A stretch of DNA of 64,000 nucleotides from Cyanidioschyzon merolae. Its lineage: Eukaryota. Below the pieces are notes generated by a model. The model made no database searches. It saw only the letters and a program-made list of their open reading frames with translations, and was not told where the DNA came from. Where the stretch lies: assembly GCA_000091205.1 (NCBI GenBank), contig AP006497.2. One strand, written 5' to 3'. The position numbers were made by a program, and so were the translations under genes. The stretch's first letter is position 1, and each line of letters opens with the position of its first letter. Below, piece by piece: positions 1,817-32,299 of the stretch.

Positions 1817-4800
1817 TCAGAAATCGACACCTTCAATACGGTCTTCGATTTCGCGGTACAGATCCCGCAAGCGTTCGATATTCTCCTCGGAGGTTTCCCA
1901 GTAGCCACGGCCGTGTGCCTCCAGCATCGTTGTCACCATAGAGCGGAAGCTGTTGGGATTCGAGTCCATGAGCTTCTTCCGCATGGCCTCGTCGACAAAG
2001 AAGGTCTGGTTGGCGTTCTCATAGACCCAGTTGTCGACAGCGTCCGAGGTCACCGAGAACGCCATGGTGTTCCGCAAACGCTTGGAAAGTTCTCGCACAC
2101 CTTCGTAACCAGAGTTCACGAGTCCGTCGATCCACTTGGGATTCAGCAGTTTGGTCCGGCTATCGAGACGAATGGTCTCGTCGAGGCTGCGCACGGCAAC
2201 GTTCGCCGTCGTCGAGTCCGCGATATACGAGCGGGGCTTGCGCTTGTCACCCCGAAGGGCGGCAACCCACTTCTCGTTTGCGCCATCTGCATAATTCGAG
2301 ACGTCCGTCAAGGAGATCTCAGACGAATCCAGATTCTGCATCGTGACCTCGACGGTTTTGAGCGCCCGCTCGAAGCGCTGCCGCGCGGGAATCATGGCCC
2401 CCGGGCGATCACTATCGTAGGCGAAGGATTTGCGAGAGAGGTACTGTTCCTGGAGCTGCTGTTCATCGGTCCATCCTCCATTTTCAATGGCAATGCCAAC
2501 GTTCGCAGAATAACTGCCCGATGCATTCGAAAACACACGCGTTGCTGCCTCCCGTACACTGATGTTCTCCTCGGCTGCCTGCTCCAGGGCGTGCTTGCGC
2601 ACGTAGTTCATCTCGGGCGGTTCATCAGCCTCTGCTGCCATCTTGATCGCTTGGTCCATCAGCGCCATCTGGTTGATCAACAGATCGCGAAAGATGCCGC
2701 TAACCGTGACGACCACATCGATTCGTGGGCGTCCCAGCTCCGAGAGCGACACCAGCTCCACCCGGTTGACTCGTCCCGATGCGTCCGGCACCGGACGTGC
2801 CCCAATGAGCCACAGCACCTGGGCAATGCTCTGGCCAAACGACTTGATCGCCTCTGTGCCATAAAGTACCAGCGATACCGTCTCTGGCATTTGACCTTGG
2901 TTCGCGGCTGCTTCCCGCTCGAGCAGGCGCTCTACGACGACTTTGGCTTCGGCGAAGGCCGAACTCGTCGGAATCGACTGCGGATCCAGCGCGTGAATGT
3001 TCTTGCCGGTTGGGACGACGGCGGGGTTCCGGATGGGATCTCCCCCCGGACCCGGTTCGATGTAACGTCCTTGGAGTGCCTGCATCAGCGAACCGAGCTC
3101 GTTATCCTTAATGATCTGCTCTAGGCAGACCTCAAGGTACTCAAAGAGCGGCTTCAGGTCTCGTGCTGAGCACTGGGGAAAGCCGCTCTCCTCGAGCGCC
3201 ACCAGATACGTCGGTTTGATCGCTTCGGACAGGAACGATACCATCACGCGATCAATGCGTCCATCCTTGTTGACTGACTTGGAGACAACCCGCTCAACAG
3301 CGTTGCGGCACGCACGCTGAATGCGATCCAACAGCTCGACATCGTCTAGCGCTGTTGAGCGGTACAACTGCTCAATATCCCGATCAACAGACTCGGCTAC
3401 AATACGGGGCAAGGCCTTGAGTCCTTTCTCCGGCCGATCGACACCGGCGATATTCACGAGTGTTGCTACCGCCTCCGCCGCAGTCGGTGGTTTGCCTATC
3501 GTATGCAGCCCGATCGGCAACAAACGAGCTTCTATCTCCATGAGACGGGCGTAGATCGATCCAATAACCTGGTCCCGCTCTTGACGCGTGAGTTGATCGA
3601 ATCCGTCTACGGGCAAGTTGGGAATGTCTCGGTCGAGGTTGCACTGTCGAGCGGTTGCGACGATCGCTGCGCACAGTGCAGCAGCTCTGGACTCATTCGC
3701 ACGCAGTTCCTGGTACTCCCGGATAAGCGATTGACACTCTTTGAGTTCCTTGTAGAGGCCGGCGTTCTCTGCAGGCGGTGTAAGGTAGGAGATGATTCCG
3801 GCGTAGGAGCGTCGCTTCGCTATGGTTGCCTCCGAGGGATTATTCGCGGCATAATAGTAGAGGTTGGGTAGACCCCCGATGAGAAGGTCGGGGTAGCAAT
3901 CTCCACTCATGCCGACCTGTTTGCCCGGCATAAATTCCAGACTTCCATGCGTTCCAAAATGAATCACCGCATTCGCGTCGAAAATCTTCTGCAACCACGT
4001 ATAGCAGGCTGCGAATCCATGATGCGGCGATGCAGACTTGGAGAACAGCAGCCGCATAGGGTCGCCTTCGTACCCGAAACTTGGTTGCACGACCACGGCG
4101 ACATTTCCGAACTGTGCACCGTAGACCAGCAGATTTGTGCCGTCGGTGTTCAGGGTACCGGGAGGCGGACCCCAGTGCTCCTGCAATGAACGCTGATACT
4201 CACATAGACGTTCGTATTCGGATACAGGCATTCGATAGAGCACGTTGAGTTCAGGCGAGCTGATTTTGGCCTCGCGATCGTGCAGTACGCGCTCCATCAA
4301 CGCATCAACAGTCTCGGGAATATCACCGACGGTATAACCATCCAGCTTCATTGCCTGGAGGACCTTGTGGATCGAGCCGAACACGTCCAGATAGGCCGCG
4401 GTACCGACATTGCCCTTGTCTGGTGGAAACGAGAACACGACGACTGCAACCTTCTTCTCGCGGTTCTTCATGCGTCCAAGTTGGGCCCACTTCAGCGCTC
4501 GTGACGCCAGCAAATGAATGCGATCGTGCAGTGGAATACTCCGCCCTGTGAGTCCGTCTCGCCCCGCATAGATGAGCGGCTCGATCGCGCCGTCCAGCTC
4601 AGGCAGACTAACCTGTAATGCAGTCTGAATCGGATGCAGTCCGAGCTCGCTTCGCTTCCACTCATCAAATGTCTGGAATACAAGCGGCAGCGAGCAAATG
4701 TATGGGCGATTCAGGGCTTTGAGGGCTGCAACTGCGCGCGGATGGTCCTGTTTGGCGGGACCCCCAACCAGCGCAAATCCCGTAAGCGACACAACGACGT

Positions 4801-6091
4801 CGACCAGGGGCACTGCTGTATTCAGCGCATAAAAGAAACGGTTCACTGGCTCGCTGAAATCCAGGGCTCCCGAGAAAATCGGGATTACTTTCGCTCCACG
4901 GGCCTCCAGTTCCTGGATGAACGACACATAGTGACAATCATCTTTGGTGACCAGATGAGAGCGCTGCAGTACGATGCCGATGGTGGGCGCATCATTCGCA
5001 AGCCTTGCTCGCGGAGCGTGCTCCTTGTCGTACCAACGTATGTACTCGGTGACGTCCTCAAACATCTTGGGTGCCACAGGATGCCAGATTCCTGCATCCG
5101 GAAACAGGACCGGATCCTTCACTTCAAACTGGAAGCTCTGAACATCCTGAACGTACTTGGATGCAACCATTAAGATCATGTTTTCGAGGTTCTCTACAGT
5201 GCCCCCGAGCCAGTACTGAAAAGAGAGCATAAACGATCGCGCATCCTGAGCCTTGTCGCTCGGCAAGTACTTAAGCACCTTTGGCAGAGTGCGCAGCAAG
5301 CGAAGCATTTGGGACTCGAAGTCTGCACCCTGTTGTTCTCGCCGTTTCTTCATGATCTGCCCGATGAACGATGTCGTAGACTGTCCAGTCTGGTTCAGTT
5401 GGCCCATACTAAAAGCCCCGAGTTTGTTCAGTTTCATCACCGGAGGTAAGGACGGAAACACGACGCATGCATCGAGACGATCTCTTACAGGCGCGACGGC
5501 GGCGACGACCTTGTCGGCAAGCTCTTGGACAAAAATCAGAGATCCGATGAAAATGTTCGCATCCGCAATATCGCGCTTGAAGGCGTTGTAGTTGGCCTCG
5601 TTTCGAAGCTCCTCCAGGAGATAGCCACTCAGTTCCACCGCCATGTGCTCCTGTTTCGCGTTGATCTTTCGAACCGCAGCCGTCAGCGTCGACTGGTACT
5701 GCGACTCCAACACGACATATACAATTTTGACCAGTTTCCGTCCTTCTAGCACTGGAGGTACAATGTGCCTGTCCTCTGGCTTCGACGCCGTAAACAGGCC
5801 GCCTGGCGCTCCGGCCAGAATGCCCGTACCGTCGTCATTCACACCGTTTCCACCAGCGTTCCAGTTCACTGCAGCACCCGTACCTTTACGGCGCTCGTTC
5901 GCAGCAGTCATCACCGACCGAGTGCGCATCTGTTGCGAGCGGCGGCTGCTCGAAGGCAGCACCAGCGGCCCCCAGGCTGAGGTCTTGCCCCACTGGTGCA
6001 GCGGCTGCACGGAACCAGCTTTCACAGCAACACCGGTTCCTAAAAAGCGCTTCTGCAACGTGGTACTCGGCGCTACAAAGCTAATCTCCAT
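1817..6091 (-). CDS. CHLH: Magnesium-chelatase subunit H (ChlH; CobN/Mg-chelatase family), 1424 aa, single uninterrupted ORF
   Basis: A 1424-aa ORF with a proper ATG at complement 6089-6091. The long protein ends in ...[69 protein letters not shown]. Its length matches plant/algal ChlH (~1380 aa). The N-terminus [11 protein letters not shown]... looks like a plastid transit peptide with an FVAP motif. Confidence 0.92.
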
Positions 6092-6650
6092 ATTTAACGC
6101 ACGGTGGAATGTTTACCAGACCCTACGCTGGACGGAAGAAGCGTTCAGGTTGTGAAGCGTACACTACTTCTCTTCGTCAAACGTGTCTACTATGCGCAAG
6201 CCTCTGCACACGTGACAAGATGCTACGAGTTACTATACGCTCCAGGGAACGCTGAACTAGAAAATATCAAAACCAGACGCCAAGCCACAGCAATGCTATG
6301 CGCTCGTAGCAAAAGAGCGCGATAGGTTGTAAAGTGACCCGGAGATCAGTTCGACGAGGGCATGCGGCGGTGCAGTCGCACCTGCGCGTATCAGCGACGG
6401 CAGGAACGGCGGCGACGATCAGAAAACGACCGATGCAGAAGCGTTGAGGGCCGCATTGCGCAGCGCCCCGGATGGTGACCTGAAGCGTTCCTCCGGAGGT
6501 GCAGGGAAATCAGTGGAATAAAATGGATATTTATGGATAGAGTGCGTCGGGATCTGATTCTTATCTTCACGAAACGATGACATCGGGACCATGGATCCCC
6601 GAATTCGGAATCTATGATGGCTTTCGGGAAAGCGTCCACCATGAAGCACT

Positions 6651-8560
6651 TTCCTTCAAGTTCCATTACCCATACTTGCTTTCGGATAAACAGGTCTTTT
6701 CATAGGTTCCATCCAGCGGCGAATGGCTGCCTTGAGCACTCGCCGTAGCGCCTGCACCGCTCAAGCAGATGCTGCATAGAGAGTCAGAGGGGCTCTGCAA
6801 TACCACAGAGGGCGTCGGCTCGAGGCGTCATTCATTCAACCTCGACTCGACATTCATAATGAAACTGGGAGCCTGCAAGCGCTGCTGACAGACCTACTGT
6901 CTGCGGCAGCGCGAAGCAACAGACTAGGAGTCCACTGCGACCAGGGCGACGCCCAGACGCAGTAAAGCGGCGTCTAGACCCAGAATGAACTGCGTTGCGG
7001 AAGAGTTGAACAGGTCTCACGAAAGCACCTGCCACTGGAGGAAGCATAAAGCGCGACCCGGGCAGACTCGTCCAGGTCGCGGGACCTTCCGCCTAGGGGG
7101 TAAGCTTTTGACGGCATCGGAAACTTTCCCCTCGTTTCACGTCTATCGTAAAGCGGGGAAGGAATCGTTATCTCGTTGCAATGTAGTGGTACGTTGCTGT
7201 TATTTTGTCTATACGGCGCTCGACAGGCGCACCTGGAATATCTGGCGGTCACGAGACAAGACGGATATCTCGCCGTTGAAGGGAAACCCGATCGTGATCA
7301 TTTGCGTGTTGCTCTGACGTACATGTTGTGTTTGCGTTACAGTCGTGCCAAAGTACAGTATTTCATCTCGATGGTGTTTCGACCATCAAGCAACGATATT
7401 CCGGTAGTTTTCGCGCAGTTTGTATCAGAAGCGTTCAAAAAGCGTTCTTTTTCAAAAAAACAAAAAAGGAAAGTTTTGGAGAGGCAAGTCGTCGATCCCA
7501 GAGGCCAAGTGTCACCGGATGCCGGAAAAAGCGGAGAGCACTGCCGAGCCCAGAAGCACTGGAGAGGACCGCGACGCGGAAAGTGCATGAGAACGACTTG
7601 GTCGTTGGTGCAGACGCCGGACACACGAAGATCCGTAGCCATCGCGGTTCGCGAGTGTGCGGAAGATGGCATGGACGGTAACCTACGTCCGAAAGACATG
7701 CGGCTTTTGAGCTTCTCGAGAGCGAGATGCTATCGAGAATCTGGAATCATGAATGCAAGGACAAAAATCGAGACGTGGAACGCAGGAATGAAGGATCACG
7801 TGGAAGCTTCGAGCGATGTGACGAGCCGAGGAGCAGACTTTCAAACTTTTCTGAAATGCATGGAAGTTCGCGTCGCTGACTGGGAGGCGCTGTGGAAAGC
7901 GTATCCAAAGCCCCGGTGGGCTCGTCTGCGTATGCGTCTATACTGTGGGAAGCAGCGCGCATTCGCCAATTTTTTCAATCCACTGAACGCCTTGAAGGAG
8001 GACGAGGGTCAGAGGCTCCTAGTAGCGTACGGAGCAGGGCGCTGGATGACCCAAAACAGGATATACGCCAGCTCCAACAACAAGAACGTACAAGGAGCGC
8101 GCACGGCGTTTTGTCACCATACCGATAGATGCGTTCCGAACATCGTACACACACCATGAGCTGGGCTGCACGCTTCAGAGGGTCGAGATAGAAAAGTGCC
8201 AGCGGGGCCCTGAGCATTTAAAAAAGTACGGAGCGCCGACGGAAGAGCAAATGGAAAGGAGGGCAAAAGTGCGAGAGCTACTCGCATTAGTATATACAAC
8301 CAGTGATGGCAAGAAACGTATGGAATTCGTGAACCGAGACTTGAACGCCGCTATCAATATTCGGAGAAGTGCGGTGATGGGGAAAAGACCTCCAGAGTTG
8401 ACAGGAGAGAATTTTGTGGGGCAGCGTCTCATGGTCGAATTGTACAGAATGAAAATGAAGCCAGTTGTAGGTGGCCAGTCGAGCGAGACAGTGAGGCTTC
8501 GGCGTTTCAGTTGGAGACGTTTTGTGTAGGGCGCGTTTGCCGCCACTGCTGTATACCGCT
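6651..8560 (+). mobile_element. TnpB/Fanzor-like RuvC-nuclease element, copy 1 (high-identity block; true ends uncertain)
   Basis: Direct repeat of 16372-18280 at about 99% identity overall (see the patchwork finding for how identity varies along the element). It encodes a multi-frame ORF set with a RuvC-I-like motif LVVGADAGHTKI and a RuvC-III motif FVNRDLNAAINIRR. I see no terminal inverted repeats. Weaker (~60%) similarity continues at least 60 bp beyond both edges. Confidence 0.55.
7328..8529 (+). CDS. TnpB/Fanzor-like RNA-guided-nuclease homologue, read across three frames
   Basis: Frame 2 (7328-7681) gives ...KVHENDLVVGADAGHTKI (G-x-D-x-G, RuvC-I-like). Frame 0 (to 8159) gives ...NALKEDEGQRLLVAYGAGRW...ASSNNKNV...FCHHTDRC (RuvC-II/bridge-like region with Cys residues). 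Frame 1 (8050-8529) gives ...ELGCTLQRVEIEKCQRG...KKRMEFVNRDLNAAINIRR (RuvC-III D-x-N-A-A-x-N-I). The frame switches are identical in copy 2, so they are more likely introns than random decay. The span is the sum of ORFs 7328..7681, 7176..8159 and 8251..8529. Confidence 0.5.
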
Positions 8561-9175
8561 GCGCCACCGTGTTCCCATGGAAGAGAAATTTCGAAAACTT
8601 GAAGACTGCGTGACTGGGAGCTTCTGCACACGAATTCGAGAGTATATCATTTGCTCTCCGATGCCTTGTTCGACGGCGTCGCGAATCTTCATGTTTCCCG
8701 TGGCGTATCGAACTGCAGCGGTAAAGATCCCAGGTATCCATTCCGAAAACCCGACCGAGAATCCTAAAACTACCTTTGAGTTCTCAAGTCCGTCTCTTTA
8801 TATTTCGAATGTCGACTTTGGAAATCACGGAATAAAACATTCAGAAAAAAATGCAAAGCCACGAACACAGTGCGAGCATCTCCCAATCCACTTGTAATCC
8901 AGGATTGGCGTGGTATCATCTGCGCGCTGTTGATGCAGCACTAGCACCAATACGCTGGTCTCTCAGGAACTCAAGTCGGTTGGGTCCTAAAAACCACCAG
9001 CGTGGGAGGAATTTTCATCTGTCCGTGCTAACCGCTTGGCTGTTTCTTTGAACCAGTGGCGGGAAGCAAGGCTCGGTTCACTAGGACGAGTCTAGCGGAG
9101 CGTTACGGTGCTGATCGAAAGGCCGTGCCGCTCTACCGCCGAGCACTCCGAGTTCATGTGGCTGGCTCTTTCGAC

Positions 9176-12100
9176 ATGAGCGCCGGTCCACGTTACAGCG
9201 ACGAGTCAGGCACGTTCTTGCTCGAAACGAGCCGTTTGGCTCGGCGCCGAAGAGCCGTCGTCGAGGAGCTGTGGAACCATCGTCTGGCGTGGCCACCAGC
9301 ACAACTGCATCACGTTTACCAGGGCACGTTTTATACGAGCCTGAATGATCTAGACGTTGCTCGAAGTGCCTTCCGCGAGTCTCACGTTCCCTTACGCGAA
9401 GCGTTGGGCACCGAAATCCAAATGCTTCTGGGTTTCGACCTTGATAGTGGAAAGTGGTGCGGCCGTATGCCTGCACCGCCTCCGTTGCCGGACAGTTTCG
9501 TGTACAAAGTGCTTTTCGAGTCCGGCTTGCCTTGGCAGGAAAGCGTGCTCGCGCTTGGGTATATCCCTTTCCAGTATGGTTTATCTGGCGATGCTACCGA
9601 TCGGTTAACCCGGTTTCGTGAAACCTCTTGGCGCAAAGCACCAAGGGCGGCACCAGCAGGCGCACCCGAACAGAGTCGTGGACGCTCGCTAAAGAACAGC
9701 TCCTTGGTGGACACTACGCAACCAGTGATAGTACCTTTGCGCTTGAGCGCCGTCCTCCTGGAGCAGGCAGTGACCTTTCTAATGACAAGCGTTTCTGGAG
9801 CTTCTTTGGAGGACCCCGACACGATCGTCGTTAGAGAACGCACGAGCGCTGTTCTCTGTGGAGATGTACAAGTTGCTTCGCAGGATGAATCGACGCCATC
9901 GTCGATACCAACATTGAAACCTCACCATGAGTTCTCAGATCGTGTACAGCAACAGACGCATCGCGCCGAACCCGCCACGGATATGGCGGTTGGAGAAAAT
10001 AGGTCCAGGAGGACAACACCTGCTTGCGTGCGTCGCATGAATGTGTGCACTGGTGAAGCGCATGCAACGGCACCTAGTAGAATCACGTCGCCTACTCGGC
10101 CGGATAGGTACCAAGCAGCGTTTGGGCATCGAGCCAAAACAGGTCGATTAGCGGCCTCATCTCATGCCAGCGCTGCTGATGCTGCTGCTTCCGCGTCTAC
10201 GAATACAGCCCCAGCAGGTACGGGACAATGCGAGCAGAATGACCTGGCGCAGCGAGAGCGGCATTTTTTGATAGGGAGACATATCGCAAGGCTTCCATCG
10301 ATGCTAGCGCGCTGTTTGCTCATTCGTCTGATTGCCACAAACCAGCTAACGCTGCCGCTGCTATGCCTTTTCCAGGGATTGGAGCTGCCGATCCTTTCGC
10401 TGAGATCGTGTCGTATGCACATCACCGACACGTGGATGCCGTTAATTGGGACTTTTGTGGGGCTCGAAGAACTCGATCTCTCGTTCTGTCATCGCATCAC
10501 TGACCAGGGTATCCGTTTCCTCGCTAGGCGTTACGGATCCGAAGAGAACACCGAGGAGCCGTCGGTGGCGTCGAGAACGCTGCGATCGCTTTCTCTCCAG
10601 GGGTGCAACCAGCTGACCAATACGGCAGTTTTACACCTGGAGGCGTTTCCGCGGCTGAAACGACTCGACGTGAGCGATTGCCCCAATATGGGGAATGCGG
10701 CGCTTCAGGTTCTCGCGGAGCGCTTTCGGCTGAGAGCACTCTCGGTTGCTCGTTGCGAGCGGGTCGGGAGCTCCAGCATAGCGGCGCTGTTACGGGGAGA
10801 AAACCACAATCGCATGGCATCTAGCAAAAGCGTACAGCTCGACCAGAAAGCACCCATCGAAGAGGTACCGTTGGAGACCAATGAATGTCAGTTAGAGTTT
10901 TTGGACGTTTCTGGATGCCCAGCTGTTGGCGAGTACGCCTTTCTTGGATCCGCAACACGCTTCAGTAATCGTATCGCTGCGAACGCTGCATCGCCGTCGA
11001 CCGGCTTGCCGCTTCGGACTCTGCGTTTACGAGGATGTACGCGGGTCAACGACACGGTTTGCGAACAAATAGGGCATCTGTTCCGAAATCTGCAGGAGCT
11101 GGACCTTTACGGGTGTGCACGCGTTACCGATCGCGGCATACTAGACTTGGTACGAAGCCTCGAAGAATCCCTCCAGGTGCTCTGCTTGGCGGAAACCCAG
11201 ATTACGGACAAGGGGCTCGCCGCATTGGCACAGCTGCGGTGTTTGCGTCGCTTGCACCTGACCCGCTGTCGACGGCTGGAGTTTGCACCAGGTGTTATGG
11301 AGATGTTCTGTACCCGAATGGCTGCGCAGGCGAGTCTGAGCGAACTCCGATTGCGCTCTCTGCCTTCGGTGAACGCCCGAGTCATCGCAGAACTGAGCGG
11401 TTTGTTTGTCGCGGGCGAGCTCAAGCATTTGAATTTGACGGACTGCCACCAGGTGAACGACGAGGCACTGCTGGCTCTGGGCGAGGCGCTGCGCGTACGC
11501 CTTATGGACGCCACGCCTCGAACGTCGTCAAGAACGGGAAACTCCTCAGCTGTCGCCACACAGCGACCTCCGCGTTGTCTCGTACAATCTTTATCGTTAC
11601 GGAATACCGGTATCCGCGATACAGGCCTAATATTCAAGGTTTTTATTGGCATGCGTCATCTGGACCTGGGCGAGTGCCCGACCCTAGAGAAACTGGATAC
11701 GCTCTTTGGCGACATTGCCGAGGCGGAGGAAGCACTTGCACGTTTCGGACGCCGTTCGATGCGCCTAGAGCGGCCTGCGGTGCCCACTGCGAACCGCACC
11801 AGTGCGCCTGCCTTCAGTGCCTACGAGGGCATCGTTTCAGGCACCTGCAGCCGTGCTTGCCGCGATTCGCATGATGACGTCGCAGACTGGCGAGGTCGCA
11901 CAAACACCAACACAGAGGATGCCGGCTGCTGGGCGCCTTGGGGCCTCGCGAACGCACGCGCCTCACAGGAAGCGGGGTTGTCCCATGGACCAAGCGCACT
12001 GCCCGTGGTCCCTCCCTGGCTGAATACGCTCGAATATCTGGACTTGTCCCATTGTCAGTCGGTTTCATTCGCAAATCTGCGTACACTGCGCTCAGAAAGT

Positions 12101-12838
12101 TTGCGAATCCTCATACTCGATCATTGTTCTGGGGTGACAAACGCATGCGTCGCCCTGCTTGCCTATCACGTACCGAATCTCCAGGAATTGAGCCTGCGCT
12201 TCACTGCCGTTGGTGACCTGGGAATTGCCGCTTTTGCGAACCGCTTCCGGCATTTGGAGAAACTGCACCTTCGAGGCCTACCCGATGTGACGCATGTTGG
12301 CATACGACGACTTGCTGCGTCTCCACTGGCGACGAAGCTCCGTGTTTTGGAGCTTGCCGAGTGTCCAGCGATCGGCGAACTTGCGCTCGCATCCCTGAAT
12401 GGCATGAAAGCGCTCGAATATCTGAGCCTCAAAGGATGCACCGAAATCAACGACGCTGCATTGCGGCAATTAGAAGACGTACCAGTTTTGACGGTTCTTA
12501 ACCTGCGGCAGTGTCCTTTAGTGAGCAGCAAACAGATTGAATTGTTGCGCAGTCGACTGCCAAGTCTTGTCGAAGTGAAATTTTCAAATGAATCCAGGGG
12601 CCTTGCGGAGCACACCGGCACGCCGAGTGCGCTTGTGGATAGCTTTCTCGCCTACGTTCATGGCGGTTCGCGAAGATCACCAACGGGTCGAAATCAGGCG
12701 CTTGCGCGGCAGCAACAAGTCGATGAGGCAGCACCGTCTCCGACTCGCATTTTTCTGGACATGTTTGACGCTTGGGAGATGGGACAGCGTTCAGCCCGAC
12801 GCCGCTGCAGCCGTAGTAGCAGCAGCGCAAACCGCTAA
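9176..12838 (+). CDS. Leucine-rich-repeat protein (F-box/LRR, RNI-like Cys-containing LRRs) with a long disordered N-terminal region
   Basis: A 1260-aa ORF whose track start at 9056 is GTG; the first ATG is 9176. From about aa 470 there are repeated LxxLxLxxCxxITD units: LEELDLSFCHRITDQGIRFL, LRSLSLQGCNQLTNTAVLHL, LKRLDVSDCPNMGNAAL, LQELDLYGCARVTDRGILDL, LEYLSLKGCTEINDAAL and others. This is the AMN1/FBXL-type architecture. Confidence 0.7.
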   Translation: MSAGPRYSDESGTFLLETSRLARRRRAVVEELWNHRLAWPPAQLHHVYQGTFYTSLNDLDVARSAFRESHVPLREALGTEIQMLLGFDLDSGKWCGRMPAPPPLPDSFVYKVLFESGLPWQESVLALGYIPFQYGLSGDATDRLTRFRETSWRKAPRAAPAGAPEQSRGRSLKNSSLVDTTQPVIVPLRLSAVLLEQAVTFLMTSVSGASLEDPDTIVVRERTSAVLCGDVQVASQDESTPSSIPTLKPHHEFSDRVQQQTHRAEPATDMAVGENRSRRTTPACVRRMNVCTGEAHATAPSRITSPTRPDRYQAAFGHRAKTGRLAASSHASAADAAASASTNTAPAGTGQCEQNDLAQRERHFLIGRHIARLPSMLARCLLIRLIATNQLTLPLLCLFQGLELPILSLRSCRMHITDTWMPLIGTFVGLEELDLSFCHRITDQGIRFLARRYGSEENTEEPSVASRTLRSLSLQGCNQLTNTAVLHLEAFPRLKRLDVSDCPNMGNAALQVLAERFRLRALSVARCERVGSSSIAALLRGENHNRMASSKSVQLDQKAPIEEVPLETNECQLEFLDVSGCPAVGEYAFLGSATRFSNRIAANAASPSTGLPLRTLRLRGCTRVNDTVCEQIGHLFRNLQELDLYGCARVTDRGILDLVRSLEESLQVLCLAETQITDKGLAALAQLRCLRRLHLTRCRRLEFAPGVMEMFCTRMAAQASLSELRLRSLPSVNARVIAELSGLFVAGELKHLNLTDCHQVNDEALLALGEALRVRLMDATPRTSSRTGNSSAVATQRPPRCLVQSLSLRNTGIRDTGLIFKVFIGMRHLDLGECPTLEKLDTLFGDIAEAEEALARFGRRSMRLERPAVPTANRTSAPAFSAYEGIVSGTCSRACRDSHDDVADWRGRTNTNTEDAGCWAPWGLANARASQEAGLSHGPSALPVVPPWLNTLEYLDLSHCQSVSFANLRTLRSESLRILILDHCSGVTNACVALLAYHVPNLQELSLRFTAVGDLGIAAFANRFRHLEKLHLRGLPDVTHVGIRRLAASPLATKLRVLELAECPAIGELALASLNGMKALEYLSLKGCTEINDAALRQLEDVPVLTVLNLRQCPLVSSKQIELLRSRLPSLVEVKFSNESRGLAEHTGTPSALVDSFLAYVHGGSRRSPTGRNQALARQQQVDEAAPSPTRIFLDMFDAWEMGQRSARRRCSRSSSSANR

Positions 12839-13177
12839 CTTGGATCTCGTATAACGACTGCAAGTTGCCACGCTTCTGGATTCGCACATGAACGCTCCCC
12901 AAAGACCGGGTCGAATGCAGGCTACAGCGAGCGCTCGGGCACGCGGAACCGAGACGCTTTCCGTTTAGACCGTTATCACATGCGGCGACGATGCGTTCTT
13001 TCGGACGACGACGAGACCGCCATACTTGCCTCCGTCAAGCGGTGTTTTCTGGTCGCATCCGGTTCACTCGCTACTCGGCGACGTAGAGACGTCAGGTGCC
13101 GTCTCAGAGCACAGCATCCGATCGATTGATGCACCTCAAGGCACAGGGCGCCTTTGTTGCAAGCATTGCCGCCAGTA

Positions 13178-13202
13178 GCGGCGGCGGCGGCGGCGGCGGC
13201 GC
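13178..13202. repeat. (GGC)n microsatellite followed by (TG)n at 13265-13285
   Basis: gcggcggcggcggcggcggc and tgtatgtgtgtgtgtgtac lie in the convergent intergenic spacer. Confidence 0.85.
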
Positions 13203-13831
13203 CTGACACGACTGCCGTGCCCTGTAGTGCCTCGCTATGTACGAATACAGCCCAGGCGCATGCCCTGTGTATGTGTGTGTGTGTACAGACCTCGGCGGAG
13301 AAGTTGCGGCGTGAAACGCTTCGGTGCACAACTGGGTCACGCTAGTGCAGAGCGAGCGTTTCTCGCATGCGAACACTGCACAGGCTGAATACAGGCGAAC
13401 AGATGGGACGCTGGGGCCTGGTTACCCGCTGGGATTCCCTCTCGCGGCTGGCAAGTTGCCCCAGTCATGTCTGGCCACTCGCTTCTCATCGCGTAAAGCG
13501 CTTTTTCGCGAGACGGCGTCGTCTGCGCATGCCGGCTACGACGCCCTGCAGCATATCACGAGGGGATCAGCGGCAGCCCGCGTCGCCGCTGTACAGCGCA
13601 TCCCAGGTCACATCAGCACCTGGAGCATTGTTTAAACGTACCGCGCTTCTCAAGCCAAGTGCGGTTTATCGCGTGCTTTCGAAGATAGGGAATGGCTCTG
13701 GAACGGAGAGCTGGTCGCTTTCCCAAATGGCGATGCAGAAACGCATATCCCTGCATCCTTGGTTCGATGCAACGCGTCCACAGAAAAACGTGCCGCAGAG
13801 GCGCGATCACCGCTACGTCATCTTTATCCAT

Positions 13832-15931
13832 TTATATACTATATCGTCCAGATTCTTCCGTGCTGCCCGATGCCTTGTGTCTGCCGTTCGCATCCGCCTC
13901 GTGTGATAACGACAGCACCGCTACCGTCTCTATATGCGGTGTGTGCGGGAACTGGTCAACCAGCGCCACTTTCTCCAGGCGATACCAAGGTGCATCTCGC
14001 AAGAGTAGGTCTAGGTCACGCGTCTGGCTCGCTGGATTACAGGACACGTATACAAGGCGGCGCGGTCGTAGTGCCGGCGGTGCACCGGCGATCGCTTTGA
14101 GCTGCCGCGGGTGCACGCCGGCACGCGGCGGGTCCATTACCAGCAGGTCCACTGGATGTTGCCGCGCCAGCGGCAAGTGTCGAAAGATGACTTGCCACAA
14201 GTTCTCTTTCTCCAGGTCCGTCACTTGAAAAACCGTGTTTGTGCGTGCATTGAGTCTGGCGTTCGTGCGGGCGTCATCGACGGCACTCGCCACGAGCTCC
14301 AGTCCCAGAACTTGCTCGGCGAAAGGTGCCAAGCAAAGCGCAATGGTGCCAGTGCCGCAGAAGAGGTCCACAACGAGCGCACCGGTGTCTTGTCTGGCCT
14401 GCGGGCTCGACACGGCAAGCTCGGCAGAAGACTCTGCAGCGGGTGACACCTGACCGACGCTCGGCTGTTCCAGGAGGCCGCTGTTCTCCAGAACAACCGC
14501 CATGAGCCGTTCAGCTTGTGCTGGATTCGTCTGAAAGAAGGAATTCGCGGAAATCTGAAAGTTGATGCCCGTCTCGGACCAGGAGCTGGTTTGGATTCGA
14601 GAGCGCACGTGGCGAAGCGGACGCAGGCACTGTTCGATGGTATCCTGGGTACCTGCCAGGCGTCGTTGGCTCTCTCCGACCGCAACTCCGGAGCGATTGC
14701 TGGTAATGTTTTGCAGCACGCAAACAAGGCCACGATTGGTCTCACCGAAAGCTTTCCACAGCGCAGCCGCAACGTCCTCCAGTGCAGCCTGCTGGTGAGC
14801 GTCTGCCGGTGGGCTCGTGACTAGGTTGACCATCACCTGCGTCTGATTGTGTCGGTCTTGAGCTGTCCGAATGACCAGGTTGCGCAGGAAACCAACGTGT
14901 TCCACGAGGTCGTAGGGCGGCAAGAGCGTCTCGGCCAGCGGTCGACAATGACGCTCGACGAAGCGAAGGATTTCGTTCGCGACGTCGATCTGAAGTGCGC
15001 AGTCCTCAATGCAGAGCACCTTATCGTAGCGTCGCGGTACGTGCAGTCCCAGCGCAAACCCAGTGCGCATGTCCTCACCGCTTTCCGGAGCTGTGTCCGT
15101 CCCGGGTCGTTTCCTACCAGAACTAACCGTGTTTTCGTCTCGCGTGGACGTGTCCCGGCCCTGACGCAGCGTGACCTTTCCGCTATCGTCTGCTGTATTC
15201 GGTTTCGGACGCCATACACGAGTTCCAAAGGTGAAATCCATCTTGTTCCGATACGCGTAGAGTCCTGTAGGCACCGTTGCTCCTACGGCCGGTAAGAACT
15301 CTACCGATGCCTCAGATGCAAGTCCATCTGTCTCCAGACGGCGGAGCAAGGCCCGATACATGTCACGAACTTGCTCCTCCTTCTCGGACAACTGTTTTGT
15401 GTAGATCAAGTTCTGAAACTTGCAGCCTCCACAACCTTCGAGGAAGTGTCGACACAGTGGCGCAGTTGCGAACATCGAGGGTGGATCTAGGCGTTCCACC
15501 ACTATCGCCTCCGCATGGTTACGTTTCCGACGAATGATGCGAGCACGCACTCGTTCTCCTGGAATGGCGTTGTGGACGAGCACCACGAATGACTCGTTCT
15601 CACTCAGTTGCAAACGACTGACGCCCATGCCAGTACCGTGCGCCAGTGACTCGACAGCGAGCTCCACCAGGAGGCCGCGCGAGGGCGACTTTTGTGACGA
15701 GGGCGCTCCAGGTCCATCGGTCGCTACCATGGTAGCGCTAGAGAGTCGCTCGCCCGCTGAAAAGTGTCGAGTTTGACGACTCCTGTGACACGGACGCTGC
15801 CAGACGCGTGCCCTGTAGATAATCGGTGAAAGCACTCGCGCAAAAGCAGGTTTTAGCGACACAGGTCTTTCGAAAAGTGAAACATACGTTCGTTCGACCA
15901 GGACAGCACCAGTGCGAATCTCTGTCCGCAT
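13832..15931 (-). CDS. TrmA/RumA-family RNA (uracil-5)-methyltransferase (TRM2-like), with an N-terminal extension
   Basis: The ATG start at complement 15929-15931 is verified. There is a TRAM-like N-region. A Cys cluster ...CRHFLEGCGGCKFQNL resembles the RumA Fe-S motif. A SAM-binding motif VVDLFCGTGTIALCLAP is present. The C-terminus has VYVSCNPASQTRDL, typical of class I m5U methyltransferases. Confidence 0.75.
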   Translation of the reverse strand: MRTEIRTGAVLVERTYVSLFERPVSLKPAFARVLSPIIYRARVWQRPCHRSRQTRHFSAGERLSSATMVATDGPGAPSSQKSPSRGLLVELAVESLAHGTGMGVSRLQLSENESFVVLVHNAIPGERVRARIIRRKRNHAEAIVVERLDPPSMFATAPLCRHFLEGCGGCKFQNLIYTKQLSEKEEQVRDMYRALLRRLETDGLASEASVEFLPAVGATVPTGLYAYRNKMDFTFGTRVWRPKPNTADDSGKVTLRQGRDTSTRDENTVSSGRKRPGTDTAPESGEDMRTGFALGLHVPRRYDKVLCIEDCALQIDVANEILRFVERHCRPLAETLLPPYDLVEHVGFLRNLVIRTAQDRHNQTQVMVNLVTSPPADAHQQAALEDVAAALWKAFGETNRGLVCVLQNITSNRSGVAVGESQRRLAGTQDTIEQCLRPLRHVRSRIQTSSWSETGINFQISANSFFQTNPAQAERLMAVVLENSGLLEQPSVGQVSPAAESSAELAVSSPQARQDTGALVVDLFCGTGTIALCLAPFAEQVLGLELVASAVDDARTNARLNARTNTVFQVTDLEKENLWQVIFRHLPLARQHPVDLLVMDPPRAGVHPRQLKAIAGAPPALRPRRLVYVSCNPASQTRDLDLLLRDAPWYRLEKVALVDQFPHTPHIETVAVLSLSHEADANGRHKASGSTEESGRYSI

Positions 15932-16371
15932 CCACGAGCAGTGCGAAAGGGCAAGTACTCGGAGCCTGGAAACACAGCGTCAGTGCCAGTTCGAGACTGA
16001 GCGACCTGCGTCCGTCTTGGTAGAGGTTTTCAACTTGGCAGGCTCGCGAAGCCGACTTTTCGGTTAAGGGACGCACTGTTGCTGCTCTTTAATCCTAACG
16101 AGAGCTTGCCTCTTCAGCAGAGACTACCGCGTTCCAATAGCCCCGCAGTAAAGTTCGTGAAGAGAATAGAGTCTGGTTTTTCACGCGGCTCTGCGGGGGT
16201 AGCGTCTACCGCTGGTGTTTTAAGAAAAAGCGGTACGATGTGTGGTTTTGGAGCAAAAGAGCATCGCGCAGCGTAGATATGTCCTCGATGACAGAACGTC
16301 TCCATTGATCAGGGATCCCAGATTGCGGGATGGATTTCGGCAAGCGGGAAAGTGTTTATGAAACTGTACCC

Positions 16372-18280
16372 TACCTTCAAGTTCCATTACCCATACTTGC
16401 TTTCGGATATACAGGTCTTTTCATAGGTTCCATCCAGCGGCGAATGGCTGCCTTGAGCACTCGCCGTAGCGCCTGCACCGCTCAAGCAGATGCTGCATAG
16501 AGAGTCAGAGGGGCTCTGCAATACCACAGAGGGCGTCGGCTCGAGGCGTCATTCATTCAACCTCGACTCGAGATTCGTAATGAAACTGGGAGCCTGCAAG
16601 CGCTGCTGGCAGACCTACTGTCTGCGGCAGCGCGAAGCAACAGACTAGGAGTCCACTGCGACCAGGGCGACGCCCAGACGCAGTAAAGCGGCGTCTAGAC
16701 CCAGAATGAACTGCGTTGCGGAAGAGTTGAACAGGTCTCACGAAAGCACCTGCCACTGGAGGAAGCATAAAGCGCGACCCGGGCAGACTCGTCCAGGTCG
16801 CGGGACCTTCCGCCTAGGGGGTAAGCTTTTGACGGCATCGGAAACTTTCCCCTCGTTTCACGTCTATCGTAAAGCGGGGAAGGAATCGTTATCTCGTTGC
16901 TATGTAGTGGTACGTTGCTGTTATTTTGTCTATACGGCGCTCGACAGGCGCACCTGGAATATCTGGCGGTCACGAGACAAGACGGATATCTCGCCGTTGA
17001 AGGGAAACCCGATCGTGATCATTTGCGTGTTGCTCTGACGTACAAGTTGTGTTTGCGTTACAGTCGTGCCAAAGTACAGTGTTTCATCTCGATGGTGTTT
17101 CGACCATCAAGCAACGATATTCCGGTAGTTTTCGCGCAGTTTGTATCAGAAGCGTTCAAAAAGCGTTCTTTTTCAAAAAAACAAAAAAGGAAAGTTTTGG
17201 AGAGGCAAGTCGACGATCCCAGAGGCCAAGTGTCACCGGATGCCGGAAAAAGCGGAGAGCACTGCCGAGCCCAGAAGCACTGGAGAGGAGTGCGACGCGG
17301 AAAGTGCATGAGAACGACTTGGTCGTTGGTGCAGACGCCGGAAACACGAAGATCAGGAACCATCGCCGTGCGCGAGTGTGCGGAAGATGGCGTGGACGGT
17401 AACCTACGTCCGAAAGACATGCGGCTTTTGAGCTTCTCGAGAGCGAGATGCTATCGAGAATCTGGAATCATGAATGCAAGGACAAAAATCGAGACGTGGA
17501 ACGCAGGAATGAAGGATCACGTGGAAGCTTCGAGCGATGTGACGAGCCGAGGAGCAGACTTTCAAACTTTTCTGAAATGCATGGAAGTTCGCGTCGCTGA
17601 CTGGGAGGCGCTGTGGAAAGCGTATCCAAAGCCCCGGTGGGCTCGTCTGCGTATGCGTCTATACTGTGGGAAGCAGCGCGCATTCGCCAATTTTTTCAAT
17701 CCACTGAACGCCTTGAAGGAGGACGAGGGTCAGAGGCTCCTAGTAGCGTACGGAGCAGGGCGCTGGATGACCCAAAACAGGATATACGCCAGCTCCAACA
17801 ACAAGAACGTACAAGGAGCGCGCACGGCGTTTTGTCACCATACCGATAGATGCGTTCCGAACATCGTACACACACCATGAGCTGGGCTGCACGCTTCAGA
17901 GGGTCGAGATAGAAAAGTGCCAGCGGGGCCCTGAGCATTTAAAAAAGTACGGAGCGCCGACGGAAGAGCAAATGGAAAGGAGGGCAAAAGTGCGAGAGCT
18001 ACTCGCATTAGTATATACAACCAGTGATGGCAAGAAACGTATGGAATTCGTGAACCGAGACTTGAACGCCGCTATCAATATTCGGAGAAGTGCGGTGATG
18101 GGGAAAAGACCTCCAGAGTTGACAGGAGAGAATTTTGTGGGGCAGCGTCTCATGGTCGAATTGTACAGAATGAAAATGAAGCCAGTTGTAGGTGGCCAGT
18201 CGAGCGAGACAGTGAGGCTTCGGCGTTTCAGTTGGAGACGTTTTGTGTAGGGCGCGTTTGCCGCCACTGCTGTGCACCGC
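16372..18280 (+). mobile_element. TnpB/Fanzor-like RuvC-nuclease element, copy 2
   Basis: Direct repeat of copy 1. The ORFs 16897..17880 and 17972..18250 match 7176..8159 and 8251..8529. The last ~850 bp are identical; differences cluster around 17280-17400 (G-x-D-x-G is retained: LVVGADAGNTKI). The right edge lies ~50 bp upstream of the DUF1992 ORF. Confidence 0.55.
17049..18250 (+). CDS. TnpB/Fanzor-like nuclease homologue, copy 2 (multi-frame)
   Basis: Same frame structure as copy 1, with RuvC-I-like VVGADAGNTKI and RuvC-III FVNRDLNAAINIRR. Confidence 0.5.
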
Positions 18281-18325
18281 TGACGACTGCTTTCGACTTT
18301 TGAAAGGCGTTTGCTAGCGGTGTAA

Positions 18326-19222
18326 GCGTTGGCGCACCTCCGGAGGACTGACACTGGGCCCGGGCGGTCATCTGTGCAACAGTCGCATGTTCTCGGTATT
18401 CTTCGCTCATATCTGCTTCGCCCGCTCACCACTCGTGGACGCAGTCACTGGCACGCAGTACCGAGCCGAGCACTCGTGGCCGTAGCAGAGCGCCCTGCTG
18501 GCCCTGGAGGCGTGCAAAAGCGCACCGAACGCGTCGTACCGAGTGAGGCCGCTCGACAGGAGCGCACTGCCCGTCTGCGTCGCGCCGTAGACCTTCCACA
18601 AAATCGCATTTATCCCTTTCTAGAGCATAAGGTTGCTGGCGAGGCCAAACGCAAGGACCTCCTGGCCGTTCTGGAGCAGGACTCGAGTCGCTTCGAAGAT
18701 GAACGAGCCATTCGTGACTGGGTTGAGTCACAGATTCAGGAAGCGATTCGGCAAGGGGCGTTCGAGCGGCTCCCGCGAGGGCCACTGCAGCTGCCGCAAC
18801 CACCACTCGGTGTCGACCTTGTCACGTATACCATGCATGGTCTTTTACAGCGGCACGGACTGCGACCTGTCTGGATAGAATGTATGCATGAAGTAGACGC
18901 CGAAGTGAAACGTATTCGTCTGGCTCTGGAACGAGCGTATCGAGCTCGAGTTGCTACCGCCGAGGACACGTCACCTGCGAGCACAGCACAACGAGCTGAG
19001 CGCTGGGAGGCAGCAGCGCGGGAGCTCCAGGAACAGATGCATCAAGTGAACCGACGAAATGATGCTTTTAATCTCATGAAACCCGAGCGCCTGGACACTG
19101 TTTTCCGACTGCGCATGCGTTGGGAGCACGAATTCATGCGCGTCAAGCAACGAGTGGAAAGCGAGTACTCAGCTGAACCGCGTAGCAGTTTAGCTCCGGA
19201 GGCAACGGACCCGAAAGCTTGA
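18326..19222 (+). CDS. DUF1992 (DNAJC28 C-terminal domain-like) protein; 5' end unresolved, no in-frame ATG before the domain
   Basis: ...ERAIRDWVESQIQEAIRQGAFERLPRGPLQLPQPPLGVDLVTYTMHGLLQRHGLRPVWIECMHEVDAEVKRIRLALERAY matches the DUF1992 pattern (IEEAIRxGxFDNLPGKGKPL...). The track start at 18329 is TTG and there is an in-frame stop at 18323-18325. The first in-frame ATG falls only inside the domain. Confidence 0.5.
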   Translation, partial: ALAHLRRTDTGPGRSSVQQSHVLGILRSYLLRPLTTRGRSHWHAVPSRALVAVAERPAGPGGVQKRTERVVPSEAARQERTARLRRAVDLPQNRIYPFLEHKVAGEAKRKDLLAVLEQDSSRFEDERAIRDWVESQIQEAIRQGAFERLPRGPLQLPQPPLGVDLVTYTMHGLLQRHGLRPVWIECMHEVDAEVKRIRLALERAYRARVATAEDTSPASTAQRAERWEAAARELQEQMHQVNRRNDAFNLMKPERLDTVFRLRMRWEHEFMRVKQRVESEYSAEPRSSLAPEATDPKA

Positions 19223-21427
19223 CGGTTTCATGGGATGTTTATGAACATACGGAGCGCCTTTACAATCGATAAAGGTCATAGCGGTCAAGTATCTAGTGGT
19301 CGTTGATACCGATGATATTTGCCATGGCGAGCATGATGATGAGAATGAGCATCTTCACGCGATGGATGTGCGATGCATCATACAGTAGATCATGCGTTCG
19401 TCTACGTTGATCCGATAACGCTCATGTCAAAATACAGTTCGATGGGATCGGGTAGACAAGTCAGGTGTACGTCCTTAAATTTCATCTCTTCCCATTGTAA
19501 TAAACACCAGTCCGTGTCGGAGTTTTTTGCAACTGCTCACTTGTCGTCTCCCTCGTACCGCTGGCTTTCAATTAGCTGGTACCTCCTAGTCCTGCAGCTC
19601 GGTCGCCAACTCTTGAGAACTGTTTACCGCAGCGTTCAGGTCCGGTATTCTGCTGCTTACTCCTGTTGTGCACCAATTTCGTGCACAGACAAAGGTTGCG
19701 ATCTAGGCCTCACCTGCCATGTTCATCGTTCCTGTGCACATTTTTGGTGCGCTCGTCACTGCTGTGACACTTAGTTGTGGTCAGGTGCTTCCGTGTGACC
19801 GCCGCTTACGCTTCTTTGCGCGTCACCCTGTGGCGTATAAACGCTTGCCTTATCGCTCAGTGCATGCCCTCTACGGATACGGAAGGCGTCCACAGATTCC
19901 CGCATCCGTTTCTGGAACTCGAGCCATTTCCTGCGATCCTGGGCTTGTCATCGTCAATGCTTTCGGCGAGTACACTGTCTGCTGCATGCGCTAGCGCACA
20001 CTGTCCCAGGCAATACAGGGCTTATGGAACGCAATGTTGCCCGTGATGAGAAAAGTACCGGAAGTAAAATCCAAGCCGGAGAACAAGTAAGGAAAATTCG
20101 GTCCGCCTGTCCGCCGTTCGTGCAAGGCGACGATGCACGCTCCACTGGAAGCAAGCGCTGCGATGCCTAAACCACGAGTCGAGCAACCCTTTCCACGCAA
20201 CTAGAAGAGATCGAAGCCTCTGTGAGCACATCTCACGGGGTGTATCATGCTGCCGTCGAATCCTGACTTGTCGATGGCCACACAGTCAGGATGATTTATC
20301 ATTCGATCTGAACTGATTTTTCGACCTGAAAAGTTACGGGTACTTTCTGCATGAGCTTATAGAAAAGGCCGTTAACCAGTGGCGTCCAGTTTATGCCTTG
20401 TCAATCAAGCCGCGCAAATAGCTACGCCCGCGAATTGCCCTGAAACAAAAAATTCGAAAACCTGAATCACGCGTGATTTCAGCATGCTTCTCGCAAGGAA
20501 ACAGGATGATTCGAGCCGTGTCCATATGCATCGGATTCTGATATCCATCATTTCACGAATCCTTGTTCGAAGGTTTCCAACATCCTTTTGTTTTCCATAA
20601 CGCTACAAACTCCAGCTGCAAATCACGAAAGCAACCCCTCGAAAATTCAACAGAAAACCGGTTTGCGCATTCCTGAACTCGTTATGGATGAACCTCGATG
20701 TCGAGACTGTACATCTAGCAACCATTTCAAACAAAAATAGTTATTCATAGACAGCGCATGTATCTCGGTAAACATCGATCACAGGGATCCGCGGCGCGCG
20801 CGCTCGCTCGCGCATCTGGCACAATCGATCCAAACCTGCACGCACGCGATGCCAGGAGCGATACTGCCCCGCGATTCGACGCAGCGGCGATGCGCGGATT
20901 CCCAAGCAATATATCTGGCAGGGGCGCGGAGCGTTGCCGGTTGAACGCCGCCTCGGTCGGTGTGCTGCGTGGCGAAAGGCGGCAGCATGCAGCGCAGCGC
21001 CGCCTGCGCAGCACGGGACACGTGTACGAACGCCTCCGCTGCGCATCCGTTTTTTCGCGTAGTGCCTGCTCTGGACGCTTGCTGTGACGCGTCATAGACC
21101 CTGGGGCTTGCTCTCTCTGTCTCTCTCTGTGTGTGCGCGCGCTTGGGTGTGCCCTTGTGCTGTACAACTGTCGCCGTTACGTAGGTGAGTTGTCAGACCG
21201 TTGGCACGCGTTTGTGCGCGCGCGAGTCAACTGGTGTCCGCACAACGTTTCGGGTGAGACGCGTAGAGGCTGCTGAGCGGACGCGTGTGTATCTGCAAAC
21301 CTGCCCTGCGTGGCGCCTAGACTCGCGGGAGACACGCGTCTGGAACGGTGATCGACGTGGTGGAAGGAACGCGTGGTGCTGGTGCGTGAAGCTTGCGTGT
21401 TTTTCACGAGCTGCACCTGCGTGCGGA

Positions 21428-28670: not shown

Positions 28671-28762
28671 ACTGAAAAAATAACACAAAAAAGTAAGACA
28701 AGAAAAATGCGCATCCTCGGAGAACGCTGGCTTAAGGAAACGTTTTGTCCATGAGAAAAAAA
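28671..28762 (+). mobile_element. Short poly(A)-tailed retroposon copy (SINE-like or 5'-truncated retrocopy), 92 bp, flanked by a 12-bp TSD
   Basis: A perfect 12-bp direct repeat tccatgcggcat at 28659-28670 and 28763-28774 brackets the insert exactly. The insert ends in gagaaaaaaa and is about 85% identical to 44621-44710. It contains the micro-ORF MRILGERWLKETFCP* (28707-28754). Confidence 0.6.
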
Positions 28763-31472: not shown

Positions 31473-32299
31473 AGAGAGAGGCTGGGAATCTTTGATGATG
31501 CGACTGGTAGCAGCTTTGAGGAAAGCATTCACCGTTCCACGCCTTAGTCGTCAGAATTCCAACACCCTTGCTTTCCCGCGGAGATACTGGTTATTCCTCG
31601 TGTTCGCTCGAGCGCCAAGTGCATCGATTGCGCGTCCACAGTGACGTCTGTAGCGCCGGTGCGGACACAGCACGAAACCAGAGCGGCTTTTGTCATGCCA
31701 CTGAGTATCTTGGCTCGAGACGGGCGCGTTTGTGCCGCTACGGGCGCTTTTTATTGAGCGCATCGACACCCTCCGGAAGGTTGCCGGACTGGATGCGGGA
31801 GAAGTGAAGCGCCCTAACCTTATGATCGTAAAATGATCAGAACTGTATAGATAGTGTTGCACCGCTTTCGTTCGCGAAGAGGACGCCTCCGCTGCCTGGT
31901 TTCTTATAGTTTTTCAACTCATTTATGTTCCAGTACCTCTGCGATATAGAGCAGGAGATCGAAATCCGGTTTTAATGTATCCTACAGATCGTAGACGAAT
32001 TGCCTGTAGGATATATATCGTCTACTGAACAATGCAACTAGAACTGGATTCCTCTTTCGGGTCAGTCGTACCGCAGTTTGCAGATCGTTAGGGAACACTG
32101 AACTGAACAAGTATATGCGCTCCGCGCCAAAACCCGATATTCTCAAAGCGTGCTTGCGTTCACTAGCGGAGAACGACCCGTCGACCACCTTACGGAAAGC
32201 AAGAGCGACAATAGTAGCTGCCGTAGACGTCCCAAATTCTCCACACTTTGTTTGTAGGGTCCTGAAAACACTAGGATAAAGTCATATAAAAAAGTCCTA

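Follow-up and report, generated by a model that had tools for sequence, protein, structure and literature searches.

Two defective copies of the Fanzor1 transposon CMe-1A in Cyanidioschyzon merolae, their ends, and a candidate omega-RNA scaffold of the family

In described Fanzor systems the 3' end of the nuclease open reading frame (ORF) holds the guide-RNA scaffold, which abuts the right end of the element (PMC10530073), and the omega-RNAs of the Fanzor1 proteins SpuFz1 and PpFz1 form two stem-loops before the guide (PMC11423790). From Cyanidioschyzon merolae, a red alga, Bao & Jurka (2013) described the Fanzor1 family CMe-1A, and their account of it counts some 150 copies that share about 80% identity with a consensus of about 3 kb, without terminal inverted repeats and with a target duplication that was not determined (PMC3627910); the parts of that paper concerned with the family describe neither a hairpin nor a guide RNA. 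Its supplementary files hold a 3169-bp CMe-1A consensus and the 734-amino-acid (aa) CMe-1 protein. Here we compare with these systems a stretch of 64,000 nucleotides (nt) of C. merolae DNA, called the window below (contig AP006497.2 of assembly GCA_000091205.1; one strand, 5' to 3'). A first-pass annotation had recognised in it a repeated Fanzor element, had placed the right ends of two copies near 8555 and 18275, where their identity stops, and had read the next 16-20 nt as locus-specific guides.

The repeat is direct and spans 1909 bp: when the window is compared with itself, 6653-8561 aligns without gaps to 16374-18282 at an offset of 9721, with 19 mismatches (99% identity). By BLAST, the published consensus covers copy 1 in two parts, with bases 6-1000 at 6569-7569 (79%) and 2154-3155 at 7571-8573 (85%), and copy 2 likewise, with bases 1-999 at 16286-17289 and 2153-3169 at 17291-18309, so that nucleotide homology to CMe-1A extends across both ends of the block. 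A third copy keeps a 5' part of the consensus (96-255 at 31557-31719, 68%) and a RuvC part (2737-2978 at 32916-33153, 72%), and its fragment 32916-33115 is about 70% identical in the window self-comparison. The identification as Fanzor was thus right, and the element had already been published. The copies and the block are as follows.

6564-8573, plus strand: CMe-1A copy 1, internally deleted, right end truncated (consensus BLAST; with consensus base 6 at 6569, the start is extrapolated to 6564).
16286-18324, plus strand: CMe-1A copy 2, same internal deletion, right end and terminal hairpin present (consensus BLAST, hairpin fold).
31557-33153, plus strand: third CMe-1A copy, heavily decayed.
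6653-8561, plus strand: the block of 99% identity, matching 16374-18282, read as a gene-conversion tract internal to both elements.

Three points we hold jointly with high confidence: that the repeat consists of defective copies of CMe-1A, a Fanzor1-only transposon family; that the identity block is not the element, both copies running beyond it on both sides when set against the published consensus and 46 further distinct 3' ends of metagenome loci; and that the block arose when gene conversion acted between two old copies lying 9.7 kb from each other. The whole of the favoured reading, in which an omega-RNA role for the 3' end is blended with element identity, boundaries and conversion, we regard as probable.

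The ends were placed with 80 related loci fetched from metagenome contigs, three of which coincide with the window copies; once duplicates had been removed, 50 distinct 3' ends remained, the two window copies included. BLAST with these metagenome loci carries family homology past 8561 and 18282, from 6586 to about 8573 in copy 1 and from 16285 to 18313 in copy 2. Downstream of a conserved GCCACTACTGTACAC, most of the 50 ends hold a long imperfect hairpin, and close relatives with differing flanks are alike up to the 3' foot of this hairpin and diverge directly after it, one group of copies ending in ...TTTCCAGGGG and another in ...GGTGTGTG. The published consensus, whose tail ...CTGTACACCGCTGGCGGCAGCGTTTTTCTTTTGAAAGGCG runs on to 27 nt beyond the equivalent of 8561, ends within the 3' arm of the hairpin (its last base is 18309 in copy 2, and copy 1 follows it to 8573), whereas our family alignment adds about 13-15 nt and extends it to the true 3' end at the hairpin foot. 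The boundaries of the element therefore do not lie where identity stops, an outcome that the first-pass annotation had itself named as contrary to its model: the consensus continues past 8555/18275, and the right end is about 50 nt farther on, at 18324, in copy 2 and truncated in copy 1.

18273-18324, plus strand: copy 2, terminal hairpin; its outer stem has 10 bp, TGCACCGCTG / TAGCGGTGTA (fold and family alignment).
8552-8573, plus strand: remnant of the hairpin 5' arm in copy 1, formerly read as its guide (aligns to consensus 3133-3155).
8569-8790, no strand assigned: another dispersed repeat, adjoining the truncated end of copy 1 (weak BLAST matches).

Copy 1 retains just the 5' arm of the hairpin, family homology fading at 8568-8573; the remnant forms no stable hairpin (-8.9 kcal/mol as RNA, z-score +1.1 as DNA), and this copy has no usable right end. 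The adjoining dispersed repeat recurs at 68-91% identity, in both orientations, in 12 or more further metagenome loci at places other than Fanzor ends. A 9-bp stretch at 8715-8723, complementary to 8554-8562, was considered as a displaced 3' arm of the copy 1 hairpin and rejected, as it sits in this other repeat. Among orthologous metagenome loci no polymorphic empty sites were found, so the ends are not fixed to the base. Directly 5' of the T/C-rich left-end start, GA is present in 11 of 18 distinct copies, 7 of the 11 having TGA, and (Y)GA is thus a weak candidate for a target motif or target-adjacent motif (TAM). Two rearranged ends were also seen among the metagenome loci: at L005:3609-4495, and in its orthologue L010, two Fanzor 3' parts lie head to head in a palindrome centred near 4005, and at L027:462-842 the right-end hairpin region is duplicated in tandem over 49 nt, a duplication not found in L044, whose 3' flank is the same.

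Because the element continues past the identity block into the terminal hairpin, the two 19-nt stretches formerly read as guides, ATACCGCTGCGCCACCGTG and GCACCGCTGACGACTGCTT, are the 5' arms of that conserved hairpin; the second (18274-18292) is the 5' arm of the hairpin of copy 2. It is true that the copies diverge at this point, and that neither 19-mer recurs elsewhere in the window, where a protospacer-like search with both matched only the sequences themselves. Yet the bases in question can be aligned with the published consensus and with dozens of further copies, they form the hairpin 5' arm, and the left edge of the block is internal to the element as well. The family alignment refutes the reading of these bases as locus-specific guides, which we consider scarcely credible. 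If an omega-RNA is encoded here, its guide would rather begin at about 18325 in copy 2, directly after the hairpin, because the homology of close relatives ends at the hairpin 3' base.

18325-18345, plus strand: would-be start of the guide in copy 2 if the omega-RNA model is right, by analogy with Fanzor and TnpB (PMC10530073).

The point at which identity stops was located well by the first-pass annotation: positions 8553 and 8554 are mismatched, seven common bases (ACCGCTG, 8555-8561) follow, and the copies diverge after 8561/18282, the last base common to both. The perfect identity that it reported for the last ~150 bp is real but not special to the 3' end, the mismatch-free run covering 7672-8552 (881 bp). 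We attribute the block to gene conversion because the element ends outside it are diverged and the mismatches within it are patchy. On the left, the outer segments (67-88 nt) of the two copies are 73% identical, with indels, against 99% inside the block, and 73% is typical of the CMe-1A family; on the right, the terminal hairpin has diverged between the copies to the same family level. Transposition would be expected to leave the two copies with the same termini, and a duplicated segment would take in the flanks. That a 1.9-kb deletion derivative transposed recently could explain why both copies have the same 1153-bp deletion and the same two frameshifts, but every one of the shared defects lies inside the block, and the diverged, indel-bearing termini on both sides make this a very improbable account. 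Under gene conversion, the tract would have ended before the element does, where the terminal hairpin begins, and the bases next to it would be the hairpin 5' arm. Seven of the 19 mismatches cluster at 7622-7671, around the first frameshift and ahead of the 881 identical bases, which suggests two conversion tracts of different ages. More generally, the end of identity between nearby repeat copies is not necessarily the end of a transposon, and in old elements gene conversion can give rise to internal boundaries that are sharp but false.

Both window copies are inert relics. The first-pass annotation had the stop codon right (TAG at 8527-8529 in copy 1 and 18248-18250 in copy 2), but the frame that ends there is not intact: the start codon is gone, a 1153-bp deletion (consensus ~1000-2153) has removed the N-terminal half of the protein, and +1 insertions at 7633 and 8057 introduce two frameshifts, so that translation of the repeat spans three frames and no intact translatable ORF exists at this locus.

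7476-8529, plus strand: degenerate Fanzor1 reading frame (ATG changed to TTG at 7476-7478; deletion junction at 7569/7571; stop at 8527-8529).
8131-8133, plus strand: alanine codon GCG in place of the family's invariant glutamate of VDEFRTS, the window copies reading IDAFRTS.
8329-8358, plus strand: RuvC-III motif VNRDLNAAIN, with a nucleotide core also seen in the third copy.

The family RuvC residues comprise D318 (GADPG), the glycine of VAYGAG, E490 of VDEFRTS, which is invariant across our 87-sequence alignment, and a near-invariant D559 (NRDFNAA). The glycine of VAYGAG replaces the canonical RuvC-II glutamate, and E490 lies about 30 residues downstream of this motif. Fanzors are known to have a relocated catalytic RuvC glutamate, an alternative to the canonical RuvC-II glutamate (PMC10530073), and by analogy the glutamate of VDEFRTS is likely the relocated catalytic residue. 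The rearranged RuvC triad is accordingly found in the family and lost from both window copies through the change of glutamate to alanine. Given the deletion, the lost ATG, the frameshifts and this substitution, both copies are dead and neither can encode an active nuclease. The nucleotide core 'attcg.gaaccga.acttgaacgccgctatcaat', which the first-pass annotation had found conserved in the decayed third copy, is indeed present there at 33083-33116; it is the coding sequence of the RuvC-III motif EFVNRDLNAAIN (8329-8358), the family's best-conserved protein motif, and its preservation is therefore explained by protein conservation. In the zinc-finger region of the family (window 8140-8330), the usual TNB pattern CxxC...CxxC is lacking and THHELGC...EKC stands instead, with its histidine and cysteine residues nearly invariant within the family.

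The family itself was examined through a conceptual protein made by joining the frames, for which the JGI and ENA metagenomes gave 171 homologues; identity to it is 62-77% among the first 50 listed, and the complete-looking homologues are 560-590 aa long. A search of the representative library found 1431 relatives. The published CMe-1 sequence (734 aa) matches the family protein motif for motif, and it is the window copies that differ from it in lacking consensus ~1000-2153 and in being frameshifted. A profile of 87 family sequences matched Fanzor1 structures only when compared with the PDB (PpFz1, 1.6e-20; SpuFz1, 2.9e-14; GtFz1, 1e-6), whereas a shallow profile of 14 sequences reached SpuFz1 at an E-value of 1.6 and a single-protein phmmer search of the PDB gave no match. 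Pfam and NCBIfam scans of the family proteins returned nothing above threshold and one sub-threshold Cas12f1-like TNB match. The AlphaFold2 model of family member P0018 has a predicted local distance difference test (pLDDT) score of 84.4 (an earlier model, from a 23-sequence alignment, was unusable at 36), and in a Foldseek search of the PDB its top seven matches are all Fanzor1 proteins, followed by Cas12 enzymes; the best is SpuFz (template modelling score 0.65, E 1.4e-13), with PpFz and GtFz next. In this model the family has the Fanzor/TnpB fold (WED-REC-RuvC-TNB), and profile and fold together place CMe-1A in the same protein family as SpuFz1, PpFz1 and GtFz1 (PMC10432273, PMC11423790, PMC10530073). 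Several family proteins (P0001, P0003, P0013 and P0021) carry a variable number of ~25-aa tandem repeats (e.g. QEVEDNDLVVDAAKDEEKKEAGPAT) directly before RuvC-I, each of which re-uses the start of the RuvC-I motif, 'DNDLVV'; the AlphaFold model has low confidence across this stretch (residues 258-303).

As RNA, the terminal hairpin of copy 2 has a folding energy of -24 kcal/mol; as DNA, the value is -13.3 kcal/mol (z -2.9). In an alignment of family copies centred on the apical loop, pairing in the apical 10 bp reaches 90%, whereas 1000 shuffles of the partners give 57% (at most 67%); several pair types occur at each apical position. Two apical stem types are common, UUUUUC/GAAAG and GUUCGA/UCGAAC, and some copies (e.g. 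L040 and L032) have unrelated perfect palindromes in their place. The terminal hairpin is under structural selection, its pairing being kept by compensatory changes.

Upstream of the hairpin, the family shows a second unusual structure, which we call domain 1. It comprises the 96 nt before the hairpin (window 8457-8552) and covers the last ~70 nt of the ORF together with the first ~23 nt past the stop codon.

~8457/8460-8552 (copy 2: 18181-18273), plus strand: domain 1, a long irregular stem-loop (consensus stem CAGUAGUGG/CCACUACUG).

The domain 1 consensus folds at -44 kcal/mol (z -3.6), and none of 200 shuffles was as good. Across 44 copies its mean z is -1.73, compared with +0.57 to -0.67 for six upstream 96-nt coding segments (Mann-Whitney p 6e-13), and the 267-nt consensus 3' end as a whole has a z of -5.5. 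In the window copies domain 1 is weakened (z -1.5 for the window sequence). The sense strand also folds better than the antisense; we set this asymmetry aside, because the same holds along much of the ORF and it probably reflects composition.

We hypothesize that the last ~150 nt of the element, made up of the 96-nt domain and the ~50-nt hairpin, constitute a Fanzor omega-RNA (Fanzor RNA, fzRNA) scaffold, a proposal towards which we lean modestly, by analogy with described systems and on thermodynamic evidence for the RNA. In this proposal, domain 1, spanning the stop codon, and the terminal hairpin would be the two adjacent stem-loops of the scaffold, which would be transcribed with or from the 3' end of the ORF, would act as RNA and may bind the Fanzor protein. 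The hairpin 3' base is the last base of the element, and the flanking DNA directly past it would supply the guide, with the start position given above. The first-pass placement of a scaffold at the element's 3' end may thus stand at the level of the family, whose last ~150 nt are unusually structured, although the boundary and guide coordinates attached to it were wrong.

Several results weigh against this proposal. The window's own 268-nt 3' region has a z of -0.31, no better than shuffles, and RNAalifold on 46 copies gave almost no consensus structure for the 215 nt before the hairpin. Domain 1 lacks covariation, the 83.8% of pairs observed under the consensus-derived structure equalling that of column shuffles. 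Divergence at codon positions 1/2/3 is 0.11/0.09/0.17 in domain 1 and upstream alike, and there is no extra sequence constraint on the 3' untranslated stretch, because its divergence (0.158) equals that of third codon positions (0.16-0.17). An Rfam E-value scan of 6000-19500 found no match. Covariation in the hairpin itself is mostly a matter of two large subfamilies and a few singletons, and hence of few independent events, and a one-strand hairpin is equally compatible with a DNA transposition signal.

The chief competing explanation is this last possibility, in which a single-stranded-DNA signal for transposition, and not part of a guide RNA, would lie in the terminal hairpin and perhaps in domain 1 as well. 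Comparable DNA signals are the subterminal hairpins of IS200/IS605 elements and the 3' hairpin of Helitrons. Such a signal would fit the position of the hairpin exactly at the end, its compensatory changes and its folding as DNA in copy 2, as well as the published description of the family, in which it lacks inverted terminal repeats and a determined target-site duplication (PMC3627910, as far as its account of the family goes). What speaks against it is that the 3.2-kb element has no transposase ORF and encodes no HUH transposase or helicase, that domain 1, which extends 150 nt into the element and into the ORF, is better fitted by an RNA scaffold, and that the nearest sister proteins belong to Tc1/mariner-type (DDE) elements. 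At L082:435-1343 and L083:2-847, the genes of the two nearest sister Fanzor1 proteins, 38-41% identical, each lie directly downstream of a DDE_3 Tc1/mariner-type transposase gene, whereas CMe-1A has no such gene. At the left end, moreover, the palindrome is not significantly stable (mean z -0.46). An IS200/IS605-like element with hairpins at its ends was itself tried and rejected: support for a hairpin is confined to the right end, no HUH transposase is present, and the lack of thermodynamic support for the left-end palindrome weakens such a reading. On balance we consider a DNA signal in place of a guide RNA unlikely.

The DNA-signal and omega-RNA roles are not mutually exclusive, since in IS200/605 one DNA end serves both. 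We can therefore also envisage, as a speculative and rather doubtful extension, that the hairpin does double duty as the last stem-loop of an undescribed omega-RNA and as the mark of the DNA right end, with the flanking (Y)GA 5' of the left end as TAM. If so, CMe-1A would represent a eukaryotic mode resembling that of IS200/605 TnpB without a resident transposase, and this could account for the long-kept coding capacity of an apparently non-autonomous family.

A further alternative is that the 3' structures are ordinary features of an mRNA 3' end, concerned with stability or 3' processing, or a by-product of composition, with no guide function. Domain 1, with neither covariation nor extra sequence conservation, would suit this view, as would the better folding of the sense strand along much of the ORF. 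The composition-controlled z-scores, however, single out the last 96 nt over the six upstream segments, the hairpin carries compensatory changes, and homology ends precisely at the hairpin foot, all of which make this alternative improbable.

Returning to the omega-RNA proposal, CMe-1A resembles SpuFz1 and PpFz1 in having a structured ORF 3' end that abuts the right end, with two stem-loops before the position at which a guide would begin; we treat this likeness of layout as a lead rather than a test. The CMe-1A sequence could not be aligned with the known Fanzor1 scaffolds, and no equivalent of their 7-bp stem-loop 1 (SL1) was identified. Unlike characterised Fanzor1 systems, CMe-1A has as its candidate TAM no more than a weak preference for (Y)GA 5' of the left end. 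A parallel can also be drawn with the omega-RNA of the ISDra2 TnpB (IS200/IS605), as the scaffold would likewise overlap the 3' end of the nuclease gene and the right-end structure, and the right flank would be the guide. CMe-1A differs from ISDra2 in its eukaryotic host, its lack of TnpA, its unsupported left hairpin and its rearranged RuvC glutamate. What the proposal yields is a testable prediction for a red-alga Fanzor1 guide RNA, namely a scaffold of ~150 nt (the 96-nt domain plus hairpin) with a guide that starts from the hairpin foot. C. merolae is genetically tractable, and an intact CMe-1A copy could be used for direct tests.

Other features of the window lie apart from the CMe-1A copies. 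The host is a photosynthetic eukaryote with few introns: a 1424-aa magnesium chelatase H subunit is encoded at 1817-6091 on the minus strand, and the G+C content of the DNA is about 55%. Window self-comparison also revealed tandem arrays at 59358-59668 and 61230-61741, one of which has a 62-nt unit with overlapping 125-nt copies that are 100% identical, and the other a 64-nt unit whose copies share 67-97% identity with the reference. The tandem-array region is flanked by an inverted repeat pair of ~570 bp (51855-52423 and 61664-62227, 65% identity), and an A-rich direct repeat of 90 nt occurs at 28671-28760 and 44621-44710, 16 kb apart and 87% identical.

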